DNA of 64,000 nucleotides, taken from assembly GCF_003334335.1 (NCBI RefSeq), contig NZ_QOWQ01000012.1; one strand, given 5' to 3'. Below, piece by piece: positions 45,769 to 56,528 of the stretch (position 1 is its first letter; every line of letters begins with the position of its first letter). This stretch comes from Escherichia coli (GTDB taxonomy: Bacteria > Pseudomonadota > Gammaproteobacteria > Enterobacterales > Enterobacteriaceae). The notes under the pieces were generated by a model, which worked only from the letters and a program-made list of their open reading frames with translations, did not search any database and had not been told where the DNA came from. The position numbers were made by a program, and so were the translations under genes.

Positions 45769-46263
<495 letters not shown>

Positions 46264-46369
46264 TTAAACAAAAAAACGAAGCAAGCATACGCCTGATGGC
46301 GGTCCAAAAAAAAGAGTCATCTTGCCTAAGAGTATTGGCAGGATGGTGAGATTGAGCGACAATCGAGTT

Positions 46370-46453
46370 ACACCGTCGCTTAAAGTGACGGCATAATAAT
46401 AAAAAAATGAAATTCCTCTTTGACGGGCCAATAGCGATATTGGCCATTTTTTT
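46370..46453 (+). ncRNA. chiX: Hfq-dependent small RNA ChiX (MicM/SroB/RybC)
   Basis: ybaK-ybaP intergenic; acaccgtcgcttaaagtgacggcataataataaaaaaatgaaattcctctttgacgggccaatagcgatattggccattttttt matches the ChiX sequence as I recall it, ending in hairpin ggccaatagcgatattggcc plus T7. Confidence 0.75.
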
Positions 46454-47246
46454 AGCGCAACATTTGCGGCAAATTCCCTTCTCCATACAGGTGTAGTGCA
46501 CCGACCGCGACCACATATCGCCCCGGCGGCATGGCGCGTAATTTATCCCGCCAGGCGAGATTTCGCTGATGCATCAGCACATCGTACAGCGACTGACTGA
46601 ACGTATTGGGCAGCGTTATATCATTATTTTGCGGCGGTGCATTCAGCCACCAGCTCATCATTTGTTGCAGCAACCGTGCGTTGGTATGCCAGTGGGTCAG
46701 CGTATCGTCCAGCAGCGCCAGTCCTTTGTCAGGGAGCTGGAGCAACATGGCAATCTGGTTTTCAGCCCCTTCCAGTTCAATCACGGGTTTATGTTGTTGC
46801 TTCGCCGCCTGCAATAGCTGGTAATCGATACCGTATTCTGCCCGCAGCCCCAGTTTTTGTGCCTGCGTCGCCTGAAGAACCATCGCGATTTGCCACAGCG
46901 GTTGGGTAGAAAAGAGTGAGGGAGAAATGCCCATCTCCTGGCTAATGTGCTGCAGGTTTTGGAGTTGCTCCTCGCTAATGCGCTCTTCCAGCGCCTCGCA
47001 GGCAGGCAAATTAGCAAAAGGCGTATCGCTGGTGGAAACATCCGCCTCGACGATCAGCGCATCGGCGTTTTTGAGCTTTTTGAGCAAACGGGTGGGCAGG
47101 GGAGCCATATCGTGGCTACCCATATGAATACTGCCAATCAGATGAAAATGGCGATTGCCGGGGAGGGTGATATCGATGGCAGGCCAGGTGTAATGATTAC
47201 CGCGCAGCGCGGCCCAAAGCGTTTTTACCCGGTACAACAGATCCAT
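46452..47246 (-). CDS. ybaP: TraB/GumN-family protein YbaP
   Basis: 264 aa; MDLLYRVKTLWAALRGNHYTWPAIDITLPGNRHFHLIGSIHMGSHDMAPLPT... Confidence 0.85.
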   Translation of the reverse strand: MDLLYRVKTLWAALRGNHYTWPAIDITLPGNRHFHLIGSIHMGSHDMAPLPTRLLKKLKNADALIVEADVSTSDTPFANLPACEALEERISEEQLQNLQHISQEMGISPSLFSTQPLWQIAMVLQATQAQKLGLRAEYGIDYQLLQAAKQQHKPVIELEGAENQIAMLLQLPDKGLALLDDTLTHWHTNARLLQQMMSWWLNAPPQNNDITLPNTFSQSLYDVLMHQRNLAWRDKLRAMPPGRYVVAVGALHLYGEGNLPQMLR

Positions 47247-47383
47247 ACGACCTCCCTTTGTGAAATATCATGCTAGCGCGCGGTGAGGGATGGCGCAAAT
47301 GGAGTTGGAGACTTGTTTAATGTGTTTGTATGATTCAGTATGTTCTTGCATCGCTATTCACAAGGAAGCAACAGTTAAAAACC

Positions 47384-47725
47384 ATGAAACAGGCAACAAG
47401 AAAACCGACGACACCCGGAGATATTCTTCTCTATGAATATCTGGAACCGCTCGATTTGAAAATCAATGAGTTAGCAGAGTTGCTGCATGTTCATCGTAAT
47501 AGCGTCAGTGCACTGATCAATAACAATCGTAAACTCACTACTGAGATGGCATTTCGTCTGGCGAAAGTTTTTGATACCACAGTCGATTTTTGGCTAAACC
47601 TCCAGGCGGCGGTTGATCTTTGGGAAGTTGAAAACAACATGCGCACCCAGGAAGAATTGGGACGGATTGAAACAGTGGCTGAATATTTGGCACGCCGTGA
47701 AGAGCGTGCAAAAAAGGTCGCGTAA
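47384..47725 (+). CDS. ybaQ: XRE-family HTH protein, HigA-antitoxin-like (no partner toxin adjacent)
   Basis: Track ORF 131 aa; ATG at 47384 gives 113 aa MKQATRKPTTPGDILLYEYLEPLDLKINELAELLHVHRNSVSALINNNRKLTTEMAFRLAKVF (HTH_XRE). Confidence 0.8.
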   Translation: MKQATRKPTTPGDILLYEYLEPLDLKINELAELLHVHRNSVSALINNNRKLTTEMAFRLAKVFDTTVDFWLNLQAAVDLWEVENNMRTQEELGRIETVAEYLARREERAKKVA

Positions 47726-47746
47726 GGCCAAAACATCGCTTCATCT

Positions 47747-48000
<254 letters not shown>

Positions 48001-48040
48001 AAATGCGCCACCCTAAAGCAGCGCATCCGCAATGATGTAC

Positions 48041-50545
48041 TTATTCCTTCGGTTTAAACCGCAGCAACCGGTTGGCGTTACTCACTACGGTAATCGACGA
48101 GAGCGCCATTGCCGCTCCGGCAACTACCGGGTTAAGCAGTGTTCCAGTGAACGGCCACAAAATACCGGCGGCGACCGGAATACCGATACTGTTGTAGATA
48201 AACGCACCGAGCAGGTTCTGCTTCATGTTGTGCAGCGTTGCGCGGGAAATAGCGAGCGCATCCGCAACGCCCATCAGGCTATGGCGCATCAGGGTAATCG
48301 CCGCGGTTTCAATGGCAACATCACTGCCGCCACCCATCGCAATGCCGACATCCGCCTGAGCCAGCGCTGGCGCGTCGTTAATGCCGTCGCCCACCATTGC
48401 CACCTGACGTCCTTCACTTTGCAGATGTTTGATCGCTTCGGCTTTACCGTCCGGCAGCACCCCGGCGATCACCTCATCAATCCCTGCTTCTTTGGCGATC
48501 GCATTGGCGGTGGTTGGGTTATCCCCGGTCAACATCACCAGACGATATCCCGCTTTATGCAGGCGTTGCAGCGCCGCCACGCTATCACTACGCAACGGAT
48601 CGCGTACTGCCAGCAGGGCTACCGCTTTCCCGTCAACCGCCAGCAGCACAGGCGTTGCCCCTTGCGATGCCTGAGCAGTAATCTCCGCTTCGATAGCTTT
48701 GGTACCAACCTGTTGCTCATTTAACAGCGCCTGATTGCCCAGCAATAACGCATGACCTTCAGCTTCACCGCTCACGCCCAGCCCGCGCAATGTGCGGAAA
48801 CCGTTGACCTGCGGTAGCTGCATATCACCTGCTTTATCGAGGATCGCTCGTGCCAGCGGATGGCTGGAACCTTGCTCCAGTGCCGCCGCCAGACGCAATG
48901 CCTGCGCTTCATCAACATCAGCAAATGTTTTCACTGCGACAACCTGCGGCTTCCCTTCAGTCAGCGTCCCGGTTTTATCGAACACTACAGTGTCGAGTGT
49001 ACTGGCGCGTTGCAGCGCGTCAGCGTCCCGCACCAGCACGCCAAACTCAGCCGCCCGCCCGACGCCGGAAATAATCGACATCGGCGTCGCCAGCCCCAGC
49101 GCACACGGACAGGCAATAATCAGTACCGTGGTGGCAATCACCAGGGTATAGACAATCTGCGGTGCCGGACCAAAGAAATACCAGATTGCCGCACTGACAA
49201 GCGCAATAACCACCACTACCGGCACAAATACGGCTGAGATTTTATCCGCCAGCTGACCGATTTCTGGCTTGCTGCTCTGGGCCTGGCGCACCATGCGAAT
49301 GATTCGTGACAGCGTAGTATGGCTGCCAACCGCACTGGCACGAAACAGCACACTGCCGTCCTGTACCACTGTCCCGGCATGGACGCTATCGCCTTCGCCT
49401 TTTTGCTGCGGGATTGGTTCGCCCGTCAGCATCGCTTCATCCAGCCATGCTTCGCCCTGGGTAATCTCGCCATCTACCGGCACGCGATCGCCGGTCGTCA
49501 GGCGCAGCAACATACCTGGCTGCACTTCTGCCAGAGGCACGCTTTTTTCACCTTCGTCAGTAACCAGGCGTGCCGTCGGCGGGGTTAAATCGAGTAACTT
49601 TTCCAGCGCCTTAGAAGAACGCTGGCGTGCGCGCGCTTCCAGCATATGGCCGAGATTGATCAGACCGATAATCATCGCGCTGGCTTCGTAATAAAGATGT
49701 CGCGCTTCCATCGGGAACCACTGCGGCCACAGGTTGACGCTCATCGAATAGAGCCACGCCACGCCAGTACCCAGCGCCACCAGCGTATCCATCGTCGCCG
49801 CACCGTTCAGCAGGCTTTTCCATGCACTGCGGTAAAAATGGCCGCCGGCGAAAACCATCACTGCCAGGGTTATCAGGCCGATAACCAACCACAGGCTGCG
49901 GTTGTCAGCGGTGACCATCATGTTATCGCCGATCATCCCCCAGACCATCACCGGGATACCCACCGCCAGTGCGACAATTGCCTGCCAGCGGAAGCGCTTC
50001 ATCGTAGCGACGGCGGTTTCTTGCTGGCGCTCGCGGCGTTTAGCGTCATCTTCAATCGCTTCCGCGCCGTAGCCCGCTTTTTCCACCGCCTGCACTAAAT
50101 CTTGTGGGGAGGCACTGCCCATCACCAGCGCAGTACGCTCCGCCAGGTTTACCCGTGCCTGAGTGACGCCCGGTACGCTTTGCAGCGCATTTTGTACGCG
50201 GGTGACACAGCTGGCGCAGCTCATGCCGCTCAGCAGCAACTGCTGGCTGTCATCGTCATCGGCGGTCGCTGCCGGAAGCGCCTCAGAAACCGCTGTCAGT
50301 GCTTCCGACGGGATTGATGACTCCGCCAGCGGTTTAGCCTTTGGGTGGCTTACAGATGCGTCATAACCCGCTTGTTTGATGGTTTCGATCAGCTGTTCTG
50401 CACTGGCAGTCCCGGTAACGTGCGCTTCAGTGATAGACACATCCGCCTGCTCAACATCCGGACGCTGTTCAAGACTTTCTTTCACGCGTTTAACGCAGTG
50501 ACCGCAGGACAGGCCGTCCAGGGTCAGGTCGATAGTTTGTGACAT
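48041..50545 (-). CDS. copA: Cu(I)-translocating P1B-type ATPase CopA
   Basis: 834 aa; two N-terminal CxxC metal-binding domains (GLSCGHC, GMSCASC), CPC transmembrane motif, DKTGT phosphorylation site. Confidence 0.95.
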
Positions 50546-50584
50546 AAAACACTCCTTTAAGACAGTTTTGACTGGCTGTGATAA

Positions 50585-50615
50585 AGGTTAAACCTTCCAG
50601 CAAGGGGAAGGTCAA
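50585..50615 (-). promoter_or_regulatory. copA promoter with CueR (MerR-type) operator in a 19-bp spacer
   Basis: Minus strand reads TTGACC (-35, 50610-50615), 19-nt spacer containing the dyad CCTTCC-N7-GGAAGG (50593-50611), then TAACCT (-10, 50585-50590), ~40 bp upstream of the copA ATG at 50545. Confidence 0.8.
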
Positions 50616-50806
50616 GAAATTAATAAACCAGGCGGGTAAAAGTCCGTAAAGATTAAAAAATCGGCTCGATTTGCATCAGGATTAGACATTTATCTCTTTG
50701 TTTTCCTGTAGTTAAGTTGCGGGTGCTAAGTTAAATCAGGATGCCTGAAAATCGGCACCGGGGTGAGGAATTACCTCCCGCATCTATAAAAAGGAGTTAA
50801 CAAAAG

Positions 50807-51739
50807 ATGTTAGATGCAAACAAATTACAGCAGGCAGTGGATCAGGCTTACACCCAATTTCACTCACTTAACGGCGGACAAAATGCCGATTACATTCCCT
50901 TTCTGGCGAATGTACCAGGTCAACTGGCGGCAGTGGCTATCGTGACCTGCGATGGCAACGTCTATAGTGCGGGTGACAGTGATTACCGCTTTGCACTGGA
51001 ATCCATCTCGAAAGTCTGTACGTTAGCCCTTGCGTTAGAAGATGTCGGCCCGCAGGCGGTACAGGACAAAATTGGCGCTGACCCGACCGGATTGCCCTTT
51101 AACTCAGTTATCGCCTTAGAGTTGCATGGCGGCAAACCGCTTTCGCCACTGGTAAATGCTGGCGCTATTGCCACCACCAGCCTGATTAACGCTGAAAATG
51201 TTGAACAACGCTGGCAGCGAATTTTACATATCCAACAGCAACTGGCTGGCGAGCAGGTAGCGCTCTCTGACGAAGTCAACCAGTCGGAACAAACAACCAA
51301 CTTCCATAACCGGGCCATAGCCTGGCTGCTGTACTCCGCCGGATATCTCTATTGTGATGCAATGGAAGCCTGTGACGTGTATACCCGTCAGTGCTCCACG
51401 CTCCTCAATACTATTGAACTGGCAACGCTTGGCGCGACGCTGGCGGCAGGTGGTGTGAATCCGTTGACGCATAAACGCGTTCTTCAGGCCGACAACGTGC
51501 CGTACATTCTGGCCGAAATGATGATGGAAGGGCTGTATGGTCGCTCCGGTGACTGGGCGTATCGTGTTGGTTTACCGGGCAAAAGCGGTGTAGGTGGCGG
51601 TATTCTGGCGGTCGTCCCTGGAGTGATGGGAATTGCCGCGTTCTCACCACCGCTGGACGAAGATGGCAACAGTGTTCGCGGTCAAAAAATGGTGGCATCG
51701 GTCGCTAAGCAACTCGGCTATAACGTGTTTAAGGGCTGA
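50807..51739 (+). CDS. glsA: Glutaminase 1
   Basis: 310 aa; MLDANKLQQAVDQAYTQFHSLNGGQNADYIPFLANVPGQLAAVAIVTCDGNVYSAGD (serine-dependent glutaminase family). Confidence 0.9.
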   Translation: MLDANKLQQAVDQAYTQFHSLNGGQNADYIPFLANVPGQLAAVAIVTCDGNVYSAGDSDYRFALESISKVCTLALALEDVGPQAVQDKIGADPTGLPFNSVIALELHGGKPLSPLVNAGAIATTSLINAENVEQRWQRILHIQQQLAGEQVALSDEVNQSEQTTNFHNRAIAWLLYSAGYLYCDAMEACDVYTRQCSTLLNTIELATLGATLAAGGVNPLTHKRVLQADNVPYILAEMMMEGLYGRSGDWAYRVGLPGKSGVGGGILAVVPGVMGIAAFSPPLDEDGNSVRGQKMVASVAKQLGYNVFKG

Positions 51740-51741
51740 TC

Positions 51742-53034
51742 ATGATGAACACGGAAGGTAATAACGGTAACAAACCTCTCGGTCTATGGAACGTCGTTTC
51801 CATCGGCATTGGGGCAATGGTGGGGGCGGGGATCTTCGCGCTGCTGGGGCAGGCTGCATTGCTAATGGAAGCCTCGACCTGGGTCGCCTTTGCTTTTGGC
51901 GGTATTGTGGCGATGTTTTCCGGTTATGCCTATGCGCGTCTGGGGGCGAGCTATCCCAGCAATGGCGGCATTATCGACTTCTTTCGTCGCGGATTAGGCA
52001 ACGGCGTCTTTTCGCTGGCGCTCTCGTTACTGTACCTGTTGACGCTGGCGGTGAGCATCGCCATGGTCGCCCGTGCTTTTGGCGCTTATGCCGTGCAGTT
52101 TTTGCATGAAGGCAGCCAGGAGGAGCACCTTATTTTGCTCTACGCGTTGGGGATCATTGCGGTGATGACGCTTTTCAACTCCTTAAGCAACCATGCGGTA
52201 GGGCGGCTGGAAGTGATCCTCGTCGGCATTAAAATGATGATCCTGTTATTGCTGATTATTGCCGGTGTCTGGTCGCTGCAACCGGCGCATATTTCCGTCT
52301 CTGCGCCCCCCAGCTCCGGTGCGTTCTTCTCCTGTATTGGGATAACTTTCCTTGCCTATGCGGGCTTTGGCATGATGGCGAACGCGGCGGATAAAGTGAA
52401 AGATCCGCAGGTCATTATGCCACGGGCGTTTCTGGTGGCGATTGGCGTTACCACGTTGCTTTATATCTCGCTGGCACTGGTTTTGCTTAGCGATGTATCG
52501 GCATTAGAGTTAGAAAAATATGCCGATACCGCCGTAGCGCAGGCTGCTTCTCCGCTGCTCGGGCATGTGGGTTATGTGATCGTCGTCATCGGCGCTTTAC
52601 TGGCGACGGCTTCAGCCATTAACGCGAACCTGTTCGCCGTGTTTAACATCATGGACAACATGGGCAGCGAACGCGAACTGCCGAAGCTAATGAATAAATC
52701 CCTGTGGCGGCAGAGTACCTGGGGCAACATTATTGTCGTGGTGTTGATTATGCTGATGACGGCGGCACTGAATTTAGGCTCACTCGCCAGCGTTGCCAGC
52801 GCCACCTTTTTGATTTGCTACCTGGCGGTGTTTGTGGTGGCGATCCGCCTGCGTCATGATATTCACGCCTCGTTGCCGATTCTTATCGTTGGTACGTTGG
52901 TGATGTTGTTGGTGATCGTTGGCTTTATCTACAGTCTGTGGTCCCAGGGTAGCCGTGCGTTGATATGGATTATTGGCTCACTCTTACTCAGCCTTATTGT
53001 GGCAATGGTCATGAAGCGCAATAAAACCGTATAA
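51742..53034 (+). CDS. ybaT: APC-superfamily amino-acid transporter YbaT
   Basis: 430 aa, 12 predicted TM segments; starts 3 nt after the glsA stop, so probably an operon. Confidence 0.85.
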   Translation: MMNTEGNNGNKPLGLWNVVSIGIGAMVGAGIFALLGQAALLMEASTWVAFAFGGIVAMFSGYAYARLGASYPSNGGIIDFFRRGLGNGVFSLALSLLYLLTLAVSIAMVARAFGAYAVQFLHEGSQEEHLILLYALGIIAVMTLFNSLSNHAVGRLEVILVGIKMMILLLLIIAGVWSLQPAHISVSAPPSSGAFFSCIGITFLAYAGFGMMANAADKVKDPQVIMPRAFLVAIGVTTLLYISLALVLLSDVSALELEKYADTAVAQAASPLLGHVGYVIVVIGALLATASAINANLFAVFNIMDNMGSERELPKLMNKSLWRQSTWGNIIVVVLIMLMTAALNLGSLASVASATFLICYLAVFVVAIRLRHDIHASLPILIVGTLVMLLVIVGFIYSLWSQGSRALIWIIGSLLLSLIVAMVMKRNKTV

Positions 53035-53158
53035 CATCTCTCTGTGCGCAGTACTTCCTGTATTATTGTGGTGGCGGTCGATATTCGCACTGGCAAAAAA
53101 ACGTGCTTGAATATCTGTTGAAACCCTTTAACAAAGCACAGGAGGCGTTGCGCGAACG

Positions 53159-53566
53159 ATGAACATCAGCGATGTAGCAAAAATTACCGGCCTGACCAGC
53201 AAAGCCATTCGCTTCTATGAAGAGAAGGGGCTGGTGACGCCGCCGATGCGCAGCGAAAACGGTTATCGCACCTACACGCAGCAGCATCTCAACGAACTGA
53301 CCTTACTGCGCCAGGCACGGCAGGTGGGCTTTAACCTGGAAGAGAGCGGCGAGCTGGTGAATCTGTTTAACGACCCGCAGCGGCACAGCGCCGACGTCAA
53401 ACGGCGCACGCTGGAGAAGGTGGCGGAGATCGAACGACACATTGAGGAGCTGCAATCCATGCGCGACCAGCTGCTGGCACTGGCGAATGCCTGCCCTGGC
53501 GATGACAGCGCCGACTGCCCGATTATCGAAAATCTCTCCGGCTGCTGTCATCATCGGGCAGGGTGA
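53159..53566 (+). CDS. cueR: MerR-family Cu(I)-responsive regulator CueR
   Basis: 135 aa; [26 protein letters not shown] (MerR HTH); C-terminal metal-binding cysteines ([10 protein letters not shown]). Confidence 0.95.
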
Positions 53567-54025
53567 TTAAGACGAGACGGCTCGGATATGTAGGGTTATC
53601 CCTTCTATCGCAATGACTTCAACATGCGTACCTGCACCGAGATCCTCGCTGGCGCTGACAGGCCATGAACTGTCACCGACGCGCATATGACCGCGCCCGT
53701 TGACCAGCGGAGATTCCAGCACAAAACGTCGGCCAATCAGCTGCTGCCCGCGCTGGTTTAAATGACTATCGCTGTGCTTTTGTTCGCGCACCCGCCGCGA
53801 CAACCATTTCCACCACAGCCAGGCGGCGAGCAGCGTCAGGATGGCAAACATTACCCCTTGCCACTCCCAACCCAGCGGCACCAGCCAGACCACCAGGCCG
53901 GTAATCACCGCTGCCACGCCGCTCCACAACAAATAACCATTTCCGCCCAGCATCTCGGCTGCCAGCAGCAAACCGCCGAGACTGAGCCAGAAAATATGTG
54001 GATGAACGACCATTAACTCCATCAT
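53567..54025 (-). CDS. ybbJ: NfeD-like membrane protein (partner of SPFH protein QmcA)
   Basis: 152 aa; N-terminal TM helices and C-terminal OB-fold-like region; overlaps the qmcA stop by 4 nt. Confidence 0.8.
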
Positions 54026-54939
54026 GGCTGAGTCCGTTTGTTGGCGCTGTCTTTCACCAGCTCGGCAATCCCGGCAATCGACCCCATCAGGCTGCTGGCC
54101 TCTAATGGCATCATCACTACTTTGCTGTTACTGGAGGAACCGATCTGCTGTAACGCTTCGGTGTATTTCTGCGCTACGAAGTAGTTCACCGCCTGAATAT
54201 CACCGGAGGCGATAGCTTCAGACACCATTTTGGTGGCGCGGGCTTCTGCTTCGGCGGAACGTTCACGCGCTTCAGCCTGTAAAAACGCCGACTGACGTTC
54301 GCCTTCCGCTTTCAGGATTTGCGACTGTTTTTCACCTTCGGCTTTGAGGATTTCCGCCTGACGGATCCCTTCCGCTTCAAGAATGTAAGCGCGTTTGGTA
54401 CGTTCCGCTTTCATCTGCGCGTTCATTGAAGAGATAAGCTCTGCCGGTGGGCGCACGTCGCGAATTTCAATACGGGTGACTTTAATCCCCCACGGGTTGG
54501 TGGCTTCATCGACAATACGCAGCAGGCGTGAGTTGATGCTGTCGCGCTGAGAGAGCATTTCGTCAAGTTCCATTGAACCCAGCACGGTACGGATGTTAGT
54601 CATGGTCAGGTTGATGATCGCCAGCTCCAGATTGCTGACTTCATAAGCCGCGCGCGGCGCGTCAATCACCTGAATAAAGCACACGGCGTCGATGGTAACG
54701 TTGGCGTTATCTTTCGAGATAACTTCCTGGGAAGGGATATCGAGCACTTGCTCCATCATATTGATCTTGCGACCAATGCGATCCATAAACGGCACCACCA
54801 GACTGAGCCCCGGCTGTAACGTTTTGGTATAGCGACCAAAGCGTTCTACTGTCCACTGATAGCCCTGCGGTACGATTTTGACACCCGCGCCGACAATGAC
54901 CAGCGCGACAAAAATGAGAATCGGGATAAAGATAAGCAT
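54022..54939 (-). CDS. qmcA: SPFH/stomatin-prohibitin-family protein QmcA
   Basis: 305 aa; N-terminal TM anchor [23 protein letters not shown] then band-7 domain and EA-rich coiled coil ([29 protein letters not shown]). Confidence 0.85.
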
Positions 54940-55084
54940 CGGAAAAACCTCCTGTTGTACCGTCCATAATCAGCAAAATTGCTGCTTGATTAAACAAATT
55001 ATACCTGATTACTGAAAGAGAGTTCCCCCTTATTCCTGCGAAGGATAAACTGTTTTTAGTAAAAATCAGAAAAAGGGAACAGCG

Positions 55085-55762
55085 ATGCAGGAAAATAGTC
55101 CTTTGCTTCAGCTACAAAACGTAGGATATCTGGCGGGTGATGCGAAGATTCTTAATAACATCAATTTTTCGCTGCGTGCTGGCGAATTTAAGTTAATTAC
55201 CGGTCCTTCTGGTTGTGGCAAAAGTACGCTGCTAAAAATAGTTGCTTCATTGATCAGCCCAACCAGCGGAACGTTACTGTTTGAAGGTGAGGATGTCAGC
55301 ACACTAAAGCCAGAAATCTACCGCCAACAAGTCTCTTACTGCGCCCAGACACCGACGCTGTTTGGCGATACGGTATACGATAATCTGATCTTTCCCTGGC
55401 AGATCCGTAACCGGCAGCCTGACCCAGCCATTTTTCTCGATTTTCTCGAACGCTTCGCCTTGCCGGACAGCATTTTGACGAAGAATATCGCCGAGCTATC
55501 TGGTGGTGAAAAACAACGCATCTCATTGATTCGTAACCTGCAATTTATGCCGAAGGTTTTATTGCTGGATGAAATAACCAGTGCGCTGGATGAAAGTAAT
55601 AAACATAACGTCAATGAGATGATCCATCGTTATGTGCGCGAGCAAAATATTGCCGTGCTGTGGGTGACACACGATAAAGACGAAATTAATCATGCGGATA
55701 AAGTGATTACACTGCAACCGCATGCCGGAGAAATGCAGGAAGCACGCTATGAACTCGCATAA
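55085..55762 (+). CDS. fetA: ABC transporter ATP-binding protein FetA (YbbL)
   Basis: 225 aa; Walker A GPSGCGKST, signature LSGGEKQR, Walker B LLLDE. Confidence 0.85.
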   Translation: MQENSPLLQLQNVGYLAGDAKILNNINFSLRAGEFKLITGPSGCGKSTLLKIVASLISPTSGTLLFEGEDVSTLKPEIYRQQVSYCAQTPTLFGDTVYDNLIFPWQIRNRQPDPAIFLDFLERFALPDSILTKNIAELSGGEKQRISLIRNLQFMPKVLLLDEITSALDESNKHNVNEMIHRYVREQNIAVLWVTHDKDEINHADKVITLQPHAGEMQEARYELA

Positions 55763-56528
55763 TATTACTAACGAATCATTAGCACTGGCATTAATGCTGG
55801 TGGTGGTGGCAATCTTAATTAGCCATAAAGAAAAACTGGCGCTGGAGAAAGATATTCTCTGGAGCGTCGGGCGAGCGATAATTCAGCTGATTATTGTCGG
55901 CTATGTGCTGAAGTATATTTTCAGCGTGGATGATGCCAGCCTGACATTATTGATGGTGTTATTTATCTGCTTTAATGCGGCGTGGAACGCGCAAAAACGC
56001 AGTAAATATATTGCTAAAGCTTTTATCTCATCGTTTATTGCCATTACGGTCGGGGCGGGAATTACCCTGGCGGTGCTGATTCTCTCAGGGTCGATTGAAT
56101 TTATCCCGATGCAGGTGATCCCTATCGCCGGGATGATTGCCGGTAACGCCATGGTAGCGGTGGGGTTGTGTTACAACAATTTAGGGCAACGGGTCATTAG
56201 CGAACAGCAACAGATTCAGGAGAAACTGAGTCTTGGTGCGACGCCGAAGCAGGCTTCAGCGATATTGATTCGCGACAGTATTCGCGCGGCTTTAATTCCG
56301 ACGGTCGATTCAGCAAAAACGGTTGGCTTAGTGAGTTTACCAGGAATGATGTCCGGGCTGATATTTGCCGGGATTGATCCGGTGAAGGCGATTAAATATC
56401 AGATTATGGTGACCTTTATGCTGCTCTCAACCGCCAGCTTGTCGACCATTATTGCCTGCTATTTAACCTATCGTAAGTTTTATAATTCGCGCCACCAGTT
56501 GGTGGTGACGCAATTGAAGAAGAAATGA
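55749..56528 (+). CDS. fetB: Iron-export ABC permease FetB (YbbM, UPF0014)
   Basis: Track ORF 268 aa; ATG at 55749 gives 259 aa MNSHNITNESLALALMLVVVAILISHKEK...; overlaps the fetA 3' end by 14 nt. Confidence 0.8.
   Translation: MNSHNITNESLALALMLVVVAILISHKEKLALEKDILWSVGRAIIQLIIVGYVLKYIFSVDDASLTLLMVLFICFNAAWNAQKRSKYIAKAFISSFIAITVGAGITLAVLILSGSIEFIPMQVIPIAGMIAGNAMVAVGLCYNNLGQRVISEQQQIQEKLSLGATPKQASAILIRDSIRAALIPTVDSAKTVGLVSLPGMMSGLIFAGIDPVKAIKYQIMVTFMLLSTASLSTIIACYLTYRKFYNSRHQLVVTQLKKK

Follow-up and report, generated by a model that had tools for sequence, protein, structure and literature searches.

In Escherichia coli, copA and cueR, the genes for the Cu(I) exporter and for its activator, are kept apart by a glutaminase gene (glsA) and a permease gene (ybaT), which raises the question of what this pair does and of what its position means for the copper genes on either side. 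The locus was analysed in a 64-kb window, that is, the whole stretch of 64,000 nucleotides examined, for which a first-pass annotation had proposed a glutamine-dependent acid-resistance operon inserted between the exporter and its regulator. The account favored here, to which a probability of roughly 0.88 is given, is that glsA and ybaT form an operon inserted in the copA-cueR divergon, that GlsA serves in glutamine-dependent acid resistance with YbaT in an accessory role, and that CueR acts in trans. The gene identities, spacing, synteny, junctions and insertion hot spot come from the present analysis; the enzyme function, the GadC requirement, the binding of GadW, GadX and RpoS and the co-expression are taken from the literature, and the mechanism of YbaT we infer.

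The ORF list, the profile matches and the RefSeq annotation bore out glsA and ybaT as real genes on the same strand, nearly abutting and flanked by copA and cueR (Table 1). The copA product scored 1745 bits with the NCBIfam equivalog model NF007952 (cut-off 1316), with copA as its RefSeq name, and the cueR product 308.6 bits with the equivalog model NF007590 (cut-off 244), in agreement with RefSeq. GlsA passed the NCBIfam models NF009020, 'glutaminase A' (560.5 bits, cut-off 395), and TIGR03814 (378.2 bits, cut-off 255.4), and its residues 1–310 corresponded to residues 1–310 of PDB 1U60, 'Probable glutaminase ybaS' (691 bits, E 8.7e-208); a Shine-Dalgarno sequence, AAGGAG, lies 9 nt 5' of its ATG. 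The RefSeq label of ybaT is 'ybaT: APC family permease', and the precomputed Pfam matches of its protein are PF13520 and PF00324. The window belongs to the E. coli chromosome; the 2613 bp between the starts of copA and cueR are 100% identical in several E. coli chromosomes, and of 5426 complete E. coli genomes 5423 carry this block with the glsA-ybaT pair. The same locus is known from K-12 (b0485-b0486), where the ybaS(glsA1)-ybaT operon provides AR2_Q with its glutaminase (Lu et al. 2013; Pennacchietti et al. 2018; Djoko et al. 2017); the protein sequences match, the neighbors are again copA and cueR, and the genes themselves show no differences. The layout of the pair, its acid-resistance role, its location in the copA-cueR interval and its connection with copper stress have thus all been published already (Lu 2013; Djoko 2017; Pennacchietti 2018). 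The base-composition profile gave 51–57% GC for glsA-ybaT, like the neighboring genes, with no usable signal of horizontal transfer. An Rfam scan of 46000–56000 (E ≤ 0.1) returned zero matches across 48032–56000, so that no known riboswitch, leader or sRNA lies at glsA-ybaT.

Table 1. Features of the copA-cueR region, in window coordinates.
Feature	Position	Strand	Description
copA	48041..50545	-	Cu(I)-exporting P-type ATPase, 834-aa ORF; divergent from glsA
copA promoter and CueR operator	50585..50616	-	Hexamers read directly from the sequence
glsA (ybaST) promoter region	50732..50765	+	Published GadW/GadX ChIP-exo footprint, RpoS involved
glsA (ybaS, glsA1)	50807..51739	+	Glutaminase A, acid-activated; 310 aa, ATG start
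ybaT	51742..53034	+	APC-superfamily permease, ApcT type; 430 aa, ATG start
Sigma54 binding motif CTGGCACTGGTTTTGCT	52471..52487	+ (sense)	In ybaT, 680 nt 5' of cueR
Truncated ybaT intrinsic terminator	53045..53062	+	5' arm (GCGCAGTAC) and loop left only
hlyD relic	53064..53162	+	3'-terminal ~33 codons of an adaptor gene for type I secretion, 1-nt deletion
cueR	53159..53566	+	Cu(I)-sensing MerR-family activator of copA

The spacing of the two inner genes had been given as 3 nt; the near-abutting arrangement holds, and the figure is 2 nt (TC), between the glsA stop TGA at 51737–51739 and the ybaT ATG at 51742. A second in-frame ATG is found at 51745, and the first codon in E. albertii is ATA, which suggests that the real start of ybaT may be the ATG at 51745, with a gap of 5 nt. 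A Shine-Dalgarno-like AAGGG is located inside glsA, 8 nt ahead of the ybaT ATG. Consensus scans and folding, the means by which a promoter or terminator between the genes was looked for, gave neither: the glsA/ybaT junction showed no stable hairpin (z +0.88) and no terminator, and the sigma70 consensus scan found no promoter-like site on the + strand of 50400–53700, which spans glsA, ybaT and cueR. In published expression data the two genes are co-regulated, ybaS being up 9.1-fold and ybaT 9.4-fold (PMC6064147), and YdeO overexpression raises both (PMC4222967). That an internal promoter or terminator lies between glsA and ybaT, making them separately transcribed neighbors, is highly improbable. 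Three weak terminator-like hairpins on the + strand of ybaT (52080, 52433 and 52790) and the sigma54 site in the same gene would speak for such an arrangement, but all of them lie deep in ybaT, at least 340 nt past its start, and none is intergenic, while the genes are 2 nt apart, with an unstructured junction and equal fold changes in the published data (PMC6064147). Counted over both strands, terminator-like sites numbered 8 against 3.5 ± 1.9 expected, a weak excess, with short stems of 3–4 G-C pairs. The + strand hairpins within ybaT were rejected as internal terminators, given their short stems, their poor T-tracts and a count barely above chance. The sigma54 motif CTGGCACTGGTTTTGCT is site IS02 of Bonocora et al. 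2015 (PMC4591121) and is missing from the other Escherichia loci checked. The supplements of the SMRT-Cappable-seq and 3'-end mapping papers hold no entry for ybaT, cueR or glsA. The sequence, the pairing conserved in Edwardsiella, Serratia and Morganella and the published co-expression support a two-gene glsA-ybaT operon, as had been proposed.

For the start of this operon, published ChIP-exo peaks at ybaST were transferred to the window. The GadW and GadX peaks (510790–510823, 'RpoS involved: Yes'; supplement of PMC4918353) were converted with an offset of 460058, for which the sigma54 site served as a cross-check, and glsA-ybaT would be transcribed from a promoter about 45–75 bp upstream of glsA, bound by GadW, GadX and RpoS. 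The lack of a sigma70-consensus site on the + strand at glsA fits a promoter dependent on sigmaS or on an activator, a kind for which the scan is uninformative. In single knockouts of gadW or gadX the ybaS mRNA was unaltered (PMC4918353). A candidate GadE 'GAD box' upstream of glsA, matching by eye at about 10 of 20 positions of the consensus, was dropped as unreliable.

The acid-active, ammonia-releasing glutaminase activity of YbaS, the protein that GlsA matches by sequence, was reported together with the finding that YbaS and GadC are both necessary for glutamine-dependent acid resistance, YbaS being the glutaminase of AR2_Q and GadC the indispensable transporter at pH 2.5 (PMC3641589). Within acid-resistance system 2, GlsA would be the enzyme of the glutamine-dependent branch (AR2_Q), converting glutamine to glutamate and ammonia; the ammonia would take up protons and the glutamate would feed GadA/B, the extreme-acid transporter, GadC, being encoded elsewhere. 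GadC, the transport component of AR2_Q, is not at the glsA locus, where the adjoining transporter is YbaT; gadC of E. coli lies elsewhere. The proposal of a glutamine acid-resistance module thus stands for GlsA as the AR2_Q glutaminase but is not borne out for YbaT as the transporter, the essential partner in extreme acid being GadC.

The similarities of YbaT point to another kind of carrier. In NCBIfam, general models of APC amino-acid transporters were the sole matches, every one below its equivalog cut-off, and no GadC model was among them; the best, TIGR00909 (2A0306), was matched at 156.5 bits, far short of its cut-off of 556.8. Among structures, no antiporter of the GadC/AdiC type was matched at E ≤ 1e-5, and YbaT aligned over its full length with ApcT (MJ0609) of M. 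jannaschii (PDB 3GIA/3GI9; residues 10–424 against 5–419, E 1.6e-60), Lys164 being aligned to ApcT Lys158, so that the lysine of TM5 is conserved. ApcT was reportedly characterized by Shaffer et al. in 2009 as an Na+-independent, H+-coupled APC amino-acid transporter with a functional role for Lys158. YbaT may be a proton-coupled, ApcT-like amino-acid permease with an accessory role, perhaps that of taking up glutamine at mild acid pH. The role of YbaT has been termed 'still elusive' in the literature (PMC6250119).

A more ambitious reading, in which glsA-ybaT is a self-contained module and YbaT a dedicated glutamine importer or an exporter of glutamate or another product for GlsA, is rather doubtful. 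It would agree with the tight pairing of the genes, kept across four enterobacterial families, with the report of Djoko 2017, cited in PMC10903455 and PMC9628877, that the relief of copper stress by glutamine at acid pH requires YbaST, and with the resemblance of YbaT to the proton-coupled, broad-specificity ApcT, since an acid-outside pH gradient would drive such a transporter inward. Against it, ybaS without ybaT complements a ybaST deletion, ybaS alone restoring copper tolerance (PMC9628877), and the clusters of other species hold a GadC-type Gln/GABA antiporter as well as YbaT, which implies that glutamine transport in the system is not simply the task of YbaT.

These clusters, of the order gadB-gadC-glsA-ybaT-marC, were found in Edwardsiella, Serratia fonticola and Morganella, where glsA and ybaT are separated by 5, 2 and 92 nt, respectively. 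Their GlsA proteins are 75–85% and their YbaT proteins 54–71% identical to those of E. coli, and their gadB and gadC products score above the equivalog cut-offs (GadC, TIGR03813, 867–881 bits). They correspond to 'group IIb' (Pennacchietti 2018) and have the glsA-ybaT order and near-abutting spacing in common with E. coli, whereas the E. coli pair is split from gadBC and marC and lies inside the copper divergon. The E. coli pair would be a sub-module of such clusters. Remoter homologues of YbaT, in Kerstersia (48% identity) and Enterovibrio (46%), are not beside a glutaminase gene, and the coupling of glsA and ybaT is therefore limited to close relatives.

The claim that the pair is inserted was upheld by synteny. 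In 39 other species of Enterobacteriaceae copA and cueR are contiguous divergent neighbors, with a gap of 87–141 bp (about 108 bp), and glsA or ybaT was found between them in Escherichia alone and in none of the non-Escherichia loci; a lineage-specific insertion in Escherichia is supported. Its left junction is at 50616/50617, where colinearity with other enterics ends in the alignment: other genera read GGTCAAG|GGGGAAAT-ATG(cueR) and E. coli reads GGTCAAG|AAATTAATAA. The inserted DNA lies exactly between the copA -35 hexamer and the ATG of cueR.

The copA promoter consists of a -35 hexamer TTGACC (50615–50610), a 19-bp spacer and a -10 hexamer TAACCT (50590–50585), and within the spacer, at 50593–50611, lies the perfect CueR dyad CCTTCCAGCAAGGGGAAGG (CCTTCC-N7-GGAAGG), the sole match with zero mismatches in the window. 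The dyad, the hexamers, the 19-bp spacer and the orthologous copA are common to E. coli and the contiguous divergon of most Enterobacteriaceae. In a MerR-type divergon the operator lies in a short shared intergenic region, and in the 39 species the CueR box ends 14–15 nt before cueR (apart from 71 nt in locus L018 and one locus without a perfect box), whereas in E. coli the distance from the box to the cueR ATG is 2548 nt here and ~29 kb in island-bearing strains. The native cueR leader of the divergon, GGGGGAAAT, is replaced in E. coli by the 3' end of hlyD. The first-pass annotation had taken the insertion as the reason for an action of CueR on copA from a distance, which must be withdrawn: CueR is diffusible and binds inside the copA promoter, reaching its operator by diffusion, just as it reaches cueO at another chromosomal site (PMC1526738). 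As a consequence of the insertion, it is only the regulator gene that is no longer beside its operator; CueR still acts in trans on the operator that remained with copA, and its action is indifferent to gene distance.

The position itself has been linked to copper. The location of ybaST between copA and cueR and its induction by copper were described earlier (Djoko 2017, as cited in PMC9628877, PMC10903455 and PMC6250119), and one could suppose that the site was selected for a coupling of copper tolerance to acid and glutamine, ybaST belonging to the copper response. Copper at acid pH induces ybaST and the glutamine rescue of a copA mutant needs ybaST, in the account of Djoko 2017 given in PMC10903455; deleting ybaST makes cells sensitive to copper and deleting cueR makes them sensitive to acid (PMC9628877), and the CueR operator is only ~120–150 bp from the glsA promoter region. 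Yet the region has one CueR box, placed for copA, and in Edwardsiella, Serratia and Morganella the pair adjoins gadBC, not copper genes. Moreover, 18 non-Escherichia loci carry insertions of 213–5573 bp at the same junction, always with the CueR box kept with copA, and the ORFs screened in seven of the 18 are functionally unrelated (5'-nucleotidase-like, TrkH, DnaJ-domain, MFS and VasI). Selection of the position is therefore judged unlikely. A further seven loci probably carry an insertion of ~7.6 kb at this junction. The copA-cueR junction is a recurrent insertion hot spot, and the 18 insertions with their unrelated ORFs in the seven screened loci argue for a structural one. The exact insertion point, the recurrent hot spot and a deleted secretion island make up an evolutionary reconstruction of modest value.

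This island, of ~26 kb and encoding type I secretion and a giant adhesin, lay between ybaT and cueR and is deleted in the present strain, as in roughly 80% of E. coli. The deletion junction was placed at 53062/53064 by homology break points, one genome match ending at query position 2517, which corresponds to window position 53062. In island-bearing E. coli the intrinsic terminator of ybaT is complete (GCGCAGTACAGCCTGTACTGCGCCTTTGTCTTT): GCGCAGUACA-GCC-UGUACUGCGC is followed by CUUUGUCUUU (dG -16.1, z -3.8), compared with dG -7.6 and z +1.5 for the counterpart in the window. Beyond the junction, the hlyD relic aligns with the intact hlyD of E. whittamii and of E. coli SCU-102; it ends in a stop codon that overlaps the ATG of cueR (ATGA), and it supplies the ribosome-binding site of cueR, AGGAGG. 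PGAP annotates the relic as a frameshifted pseudogene without an N-terminus, named 'hemolysin D' in strain IAI39. No published mention was found of the island deletion with its truncated ybaT terminator and hlyD-derived cueR leader.

With the 3' arm and the T-tract of the ybaT terminator removed by the deletion, read-through into cueR is plausible. It is tentatively suggested, at somewhat less than even odds, that in K-12-type, island-less strains the transcription unit is glsA-ybaT-cueR, cueR being the third cistron of a transcript driven by acid, GadXW and RpoS that partly reads into it. The terminator is intact in island-bearing strains and destroyed here, the scan of 53035–53158 gave no terminator-like or promoter-like site on the + strand, and the cueR leader is wholly the 3' end of hlyD, to which cueR was translationally coupled through the ATGA overlap. 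In MG1655, cueR mRNA was up 2.2-fold when ybaS and ybaT were up about 9-fold (PMC6064147), an acid shift raises cueR together with ybaST (PMC9628877), and a 2006 prediction joined ybaS, ybaT and cueR in one operon (PMC1526738). On the other side, termination could be Rho-dependent, or cueR could be served by a weak promoter in the relic or in ybaT (e.g., the sigma54 site at 52471), and the 124-nt ybaT-cueR spacer folds moderately well (z -2.06). If cueR does belong to this transcript, a simple explanation in cis would be at hand for the acid induction reported for cueR and, in addition, for some of the cross-talk between acid and copper, and the control of cueR expression would differ between E. 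coli with and without the island.

The proposal that glsA and ybaT form a glutamine-dependent acid-resistance operon inserted between copA and cueR was partly supported: the operon and the insertion stand, a self-contained glutamine module is doubtful and the reading that CueR acts at a distance fails. The window is E. coli chromosome and the finding is already known K-12 biology, and therefore of low interest. The gene positions were exactly those of the first-pass annotation in the ORF list, with a spacer of 2 nt (TC, between the glsA TGA and the ybaT ATG) in place of the 3 nt claimed. A second ybaT ATG follows at 51745 and, as the first position is ATA in E. albertii, may be the true start, giving a gap of 5 nt; under either start the two genes almost abut. 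GlsA reached 560 bits against a cut-off of 395 for the NCBIfam 'glutaminase A' equivalog and matched the crystallised YbaS (PDB 1U60) end to end. YbaT matched generic APC amino-acid-transporter models only, every one below the NCBIfam cut-off.

Coordinates of the features discussed (window positions)
Feature	Position	Strand	Remarks
sroB	46370-46453		sRNA (RF00368, 82 bits)
REP-type elements	47751-48031		three in tandem, scoring as Rfam naRNA4 (RF02564), just downstream of copA
copA	48041-50545	-	above NCBIfam equivalog cut-off; same name in RefSeq
CueR dyad	50593-50611		the single perfect dyad in the 64-kb window
glsA	50807-51739	+	ORF, 310 aa
ybaT	51742-53034	+	ORF, 430 aa
sigma54 motif CTGGCACTGGTTTTGCT	52471-52487	+	sense strand, within ybaT, 680 nt 5' of cueR
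hlyD relic	53064-53162		last ~98 nt, with a 1-nt deletion; supplies the cueR AGGAGG ribosome-binding site
cueR	53159-53566		above NCBIfam equivalog cut-off; same name in RefSeq

The operon was upheld by this short spacer, an unstructured junction, pairing in three other genera and published co-expression. A promoter or terminator separating the genes was looked for; the scan found no terminator-like or sigma70-like sites between glsA and ybaT, RNA folding found no stable structure at the junction (51690-51790, z +0.88), and an AAGGG Shine-Dalgarno lies inside glsA, 8 nt 5' of the ybaT ATG. YbaT homologues of Edwardsiella, Serratia fonticola and Morganella (71%, 57% and 54% identical, respectively) are preceded by a glutaminase A gene at 5, 2 and 92 nt, so the pairing is conserved well outside Escherichia. 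Parallel induction of ybaS (glsA) and ybaT, 9.1-fold and 9.4-fold, has been reported (PMC6064147), and YdeO overexpression raises both genes, as 'ybaST' (PMC4222967). GadW and GadX ChIP-exo sites, with RpoS, lie at U00096.2 510790-510823 (PMC4918353 supplement), which on coordinate conversion is 50732-50765, 42-75 bp 5' of the glsA ATG. The sole internal signal, the sigma54 motif, corresponds to ChIP-seq site IS02 (Bonocora et al. 2015, PMC4591121); it lies deep in ybaT and does not part glsA from it, and among the loci checked it was missing in E. albertii, two other Escherichia species and E. coli SCU-102. The glsA upstream region and leader (50700-50815) has an unusually stable RNA fold (dG -33.3, z -2.9) of two hairpins, one of them (GGGGUGAGGAAUUACCUCCC) just 5' of the glsA Shine-Dalgarno.

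The claim that the pair is inserted was confirmed by mapping CopA, GlsA, YbaT, CueR, YbbJ and QmcA on 80 cueR loci from species-representative genomes. In 39 non-Escherichia species (of Citrobacter, Enterobacter, Klebsiella, Kluyvera, Kosakonia, Lelliottia, Trabulsiella, Yokenella and others) copA and cueR lie side by side and are divergently transcribed, with 87-141 bp between them (most commonly 108 bp), and nearly all have a perfect CueR dyad whose end is 14-15 nt 5' of the cueR start, the exceptions being one locus with the dyad 71 nt from cueR (L018) and one without a perfect dyad (L011). Neither glsA nor ybaT occurs in any non-Escherichia locus of the set; the pair lies between copA and cueR in E. 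coli, E. albertii and another Escherichia species. At the left junction (alignment A2), CCTTCC-N7-GGAAGGTCAAG is common to all genera, after which the other genera run on GGGGGAAAT-ATG(cueR) and E. coli runs AAATTAATAA toward glsA; from this divergence point, the inserted DNA extends from 50617, directly after the copA -35 hexamer, to the cueR ATG. The 2613-bp block from copA start to cueR start is 100% identical to that of several sequenced E. coli strains and was found in 5423 of 5426 complete E. coli genomes, IAI39 being one of the three without a single match covering at least 80% of it. Insertions of 213-5573 bp occur at the same junction in 18 other loci (L013, L017, L025, L028, L031, L032, L034, L037, L039, L043, L047, L048, L052, L056, L064, L068, L073 and L075). 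In seven of these, the ORFs that were screened are unrelated (5'-nucleotidase-like, TrkH-like, DnaJ-domain, MFS symporter and VasI-like), several having no family match. The junction is a hot spot at which insertion has recurred within Enterobacteriaceae. The CueR box remains with copA in every insertion case, and lies ~7.6 kb 5' of cueR in seven Citrobacter or Pluralibacter loci. In L043 the box is duplicated, one copy beside copA and the other 14 nt before cueR. Escherichia sp. MOD1-EC7003 (L005:6089-6583) has a ~680-bp internal glsA deletion, with ybaT intact and a K-12-type ybaT-cueR junction.

The further claim, that the insertion explains why CueR acts at a distance, was not borne out. 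The dyad lies within the 19 bp that separate the copA -35 (TTGACC) from the -10 (TAACCT), so CueR binds within the copA promoter. CueR is a MerR-type activator, free to diffuse, and has cueO, at another chromosomal site, as a further target (PMC1526738). The insertion accounts only for the displacement of cueR from its operator, reportedly pointed out already by Djoko et al., and not for the way CueR acts; cueR is ~29 kb from the operator in about 18% of E. coli genomes.

As for acid resistance, the glutamine-dependent system has YbaS/GlsA as its glutaminase, and the order gadB-gadC-glsA-ybaT-marC holds the pair in Edwardsiella, Serratia fonticola and Morganella, gadB and the Gln/GABA antiporter GadC both scoring above equivalog cut-offs; this gene context supports the association. 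The self-contained module is doubtful, as gadC deletion abolishes glutamine protection at pH 2.5 with no substitute transporter (Lu et al., PMC3641589) and ybaS alone restores the copper tolerance of a ybaST deletion (Kim et al., PMC9628877). YbaT as a GadC equivalent was ruled out, because both occur together in the three-genus clusters. Among solved structures, YbaT comes closest to ApcT of M. jannaschii (full-length alignment, E 1.6e-60), with YbaT Lys164 aligned with ApcT Lys158. Shaffer et al. (2009) reportedly described this lysine as taking the place of the Na2 site in ApcT, a proton-coupled transporter. From the similarity and the aligned lysine we infer that YbaT is probably an H+-coupled amino-acid permease, whose uptake acid outside would favour.

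Between ybaT and cueR, E. whittamii and 960 of 5426 complete E. coli genomes carry an intact island of TolC-family, 21.7-kb siiEA giant adhesin, LssB-type ABC exporter and HlyD adaptor genes, the hlyD stop overlapping the cueR ATG (ATGA). RefSeq has a frameshifted pseudogene without its N-terminus just 5' of cueR, called 'hemolysin D' in IAI39. The segment 53045-53162 is the scar of a ~26-kb island deletion, in which the ybaT terminator has lost its 3' arm and T-tract and the hlyD relic is the cueR leader. The second end point is 53062, within the terminator, where one match in the E. coli genome comparison (H11) also breaks. In strains that carry the island, a perfect 10-bp hairpin precedes CUUUGUCUUU (dG -16.1, z -3.8); in the window the 5' arm alone is left (dG -7.6, z +1.5). 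The end-point sequences CCTGTA and CCGGTA suggest a microhomology-mediated event, and E. albertii, sharing only the final ~40 nt before cueR, suggests a separate, different deletion. The island deletion that truncated the ybaT terminator is a minor, testable and possibly new lead. Scanning the stretch between ybaT and cueR in this strain gave no recognisable terminator or promoter, which makes it plausible that a transcript from the acid-regulated glsA promoter reads through into cueR. Consistent with this are the 2.2-fold rise of cueR where ybaST rose about 9-fold (PMC6064147), cueR acid induction (PMC9628877) and an old prediction of a ybaS-ybaT-cueR operon (PMC1526738).

In the window ybbJ starts directly after the cueR stop (53566/53567). 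In other E. coli, E. whittamii and many Citrobacter and Kosakonia, ~3 kb is inserted there (compared at L088:23743-26595 and in L003 and L010-L014), and in E. coli SCU-102 and IAI39 this insert encodes a YadA-like adhesin along with small hypothetical genes. Together with the ybaT-cueR island, this puts a variable adhesin island on each side of cueR. In IAI39 (L002, 7235-9841), the hlyD relic and cueR have IS1 directly 5' and IS4 directly 3'; cueR no longer adjoins copA-glsA-ybaT there, its upstream neighbour being allB.
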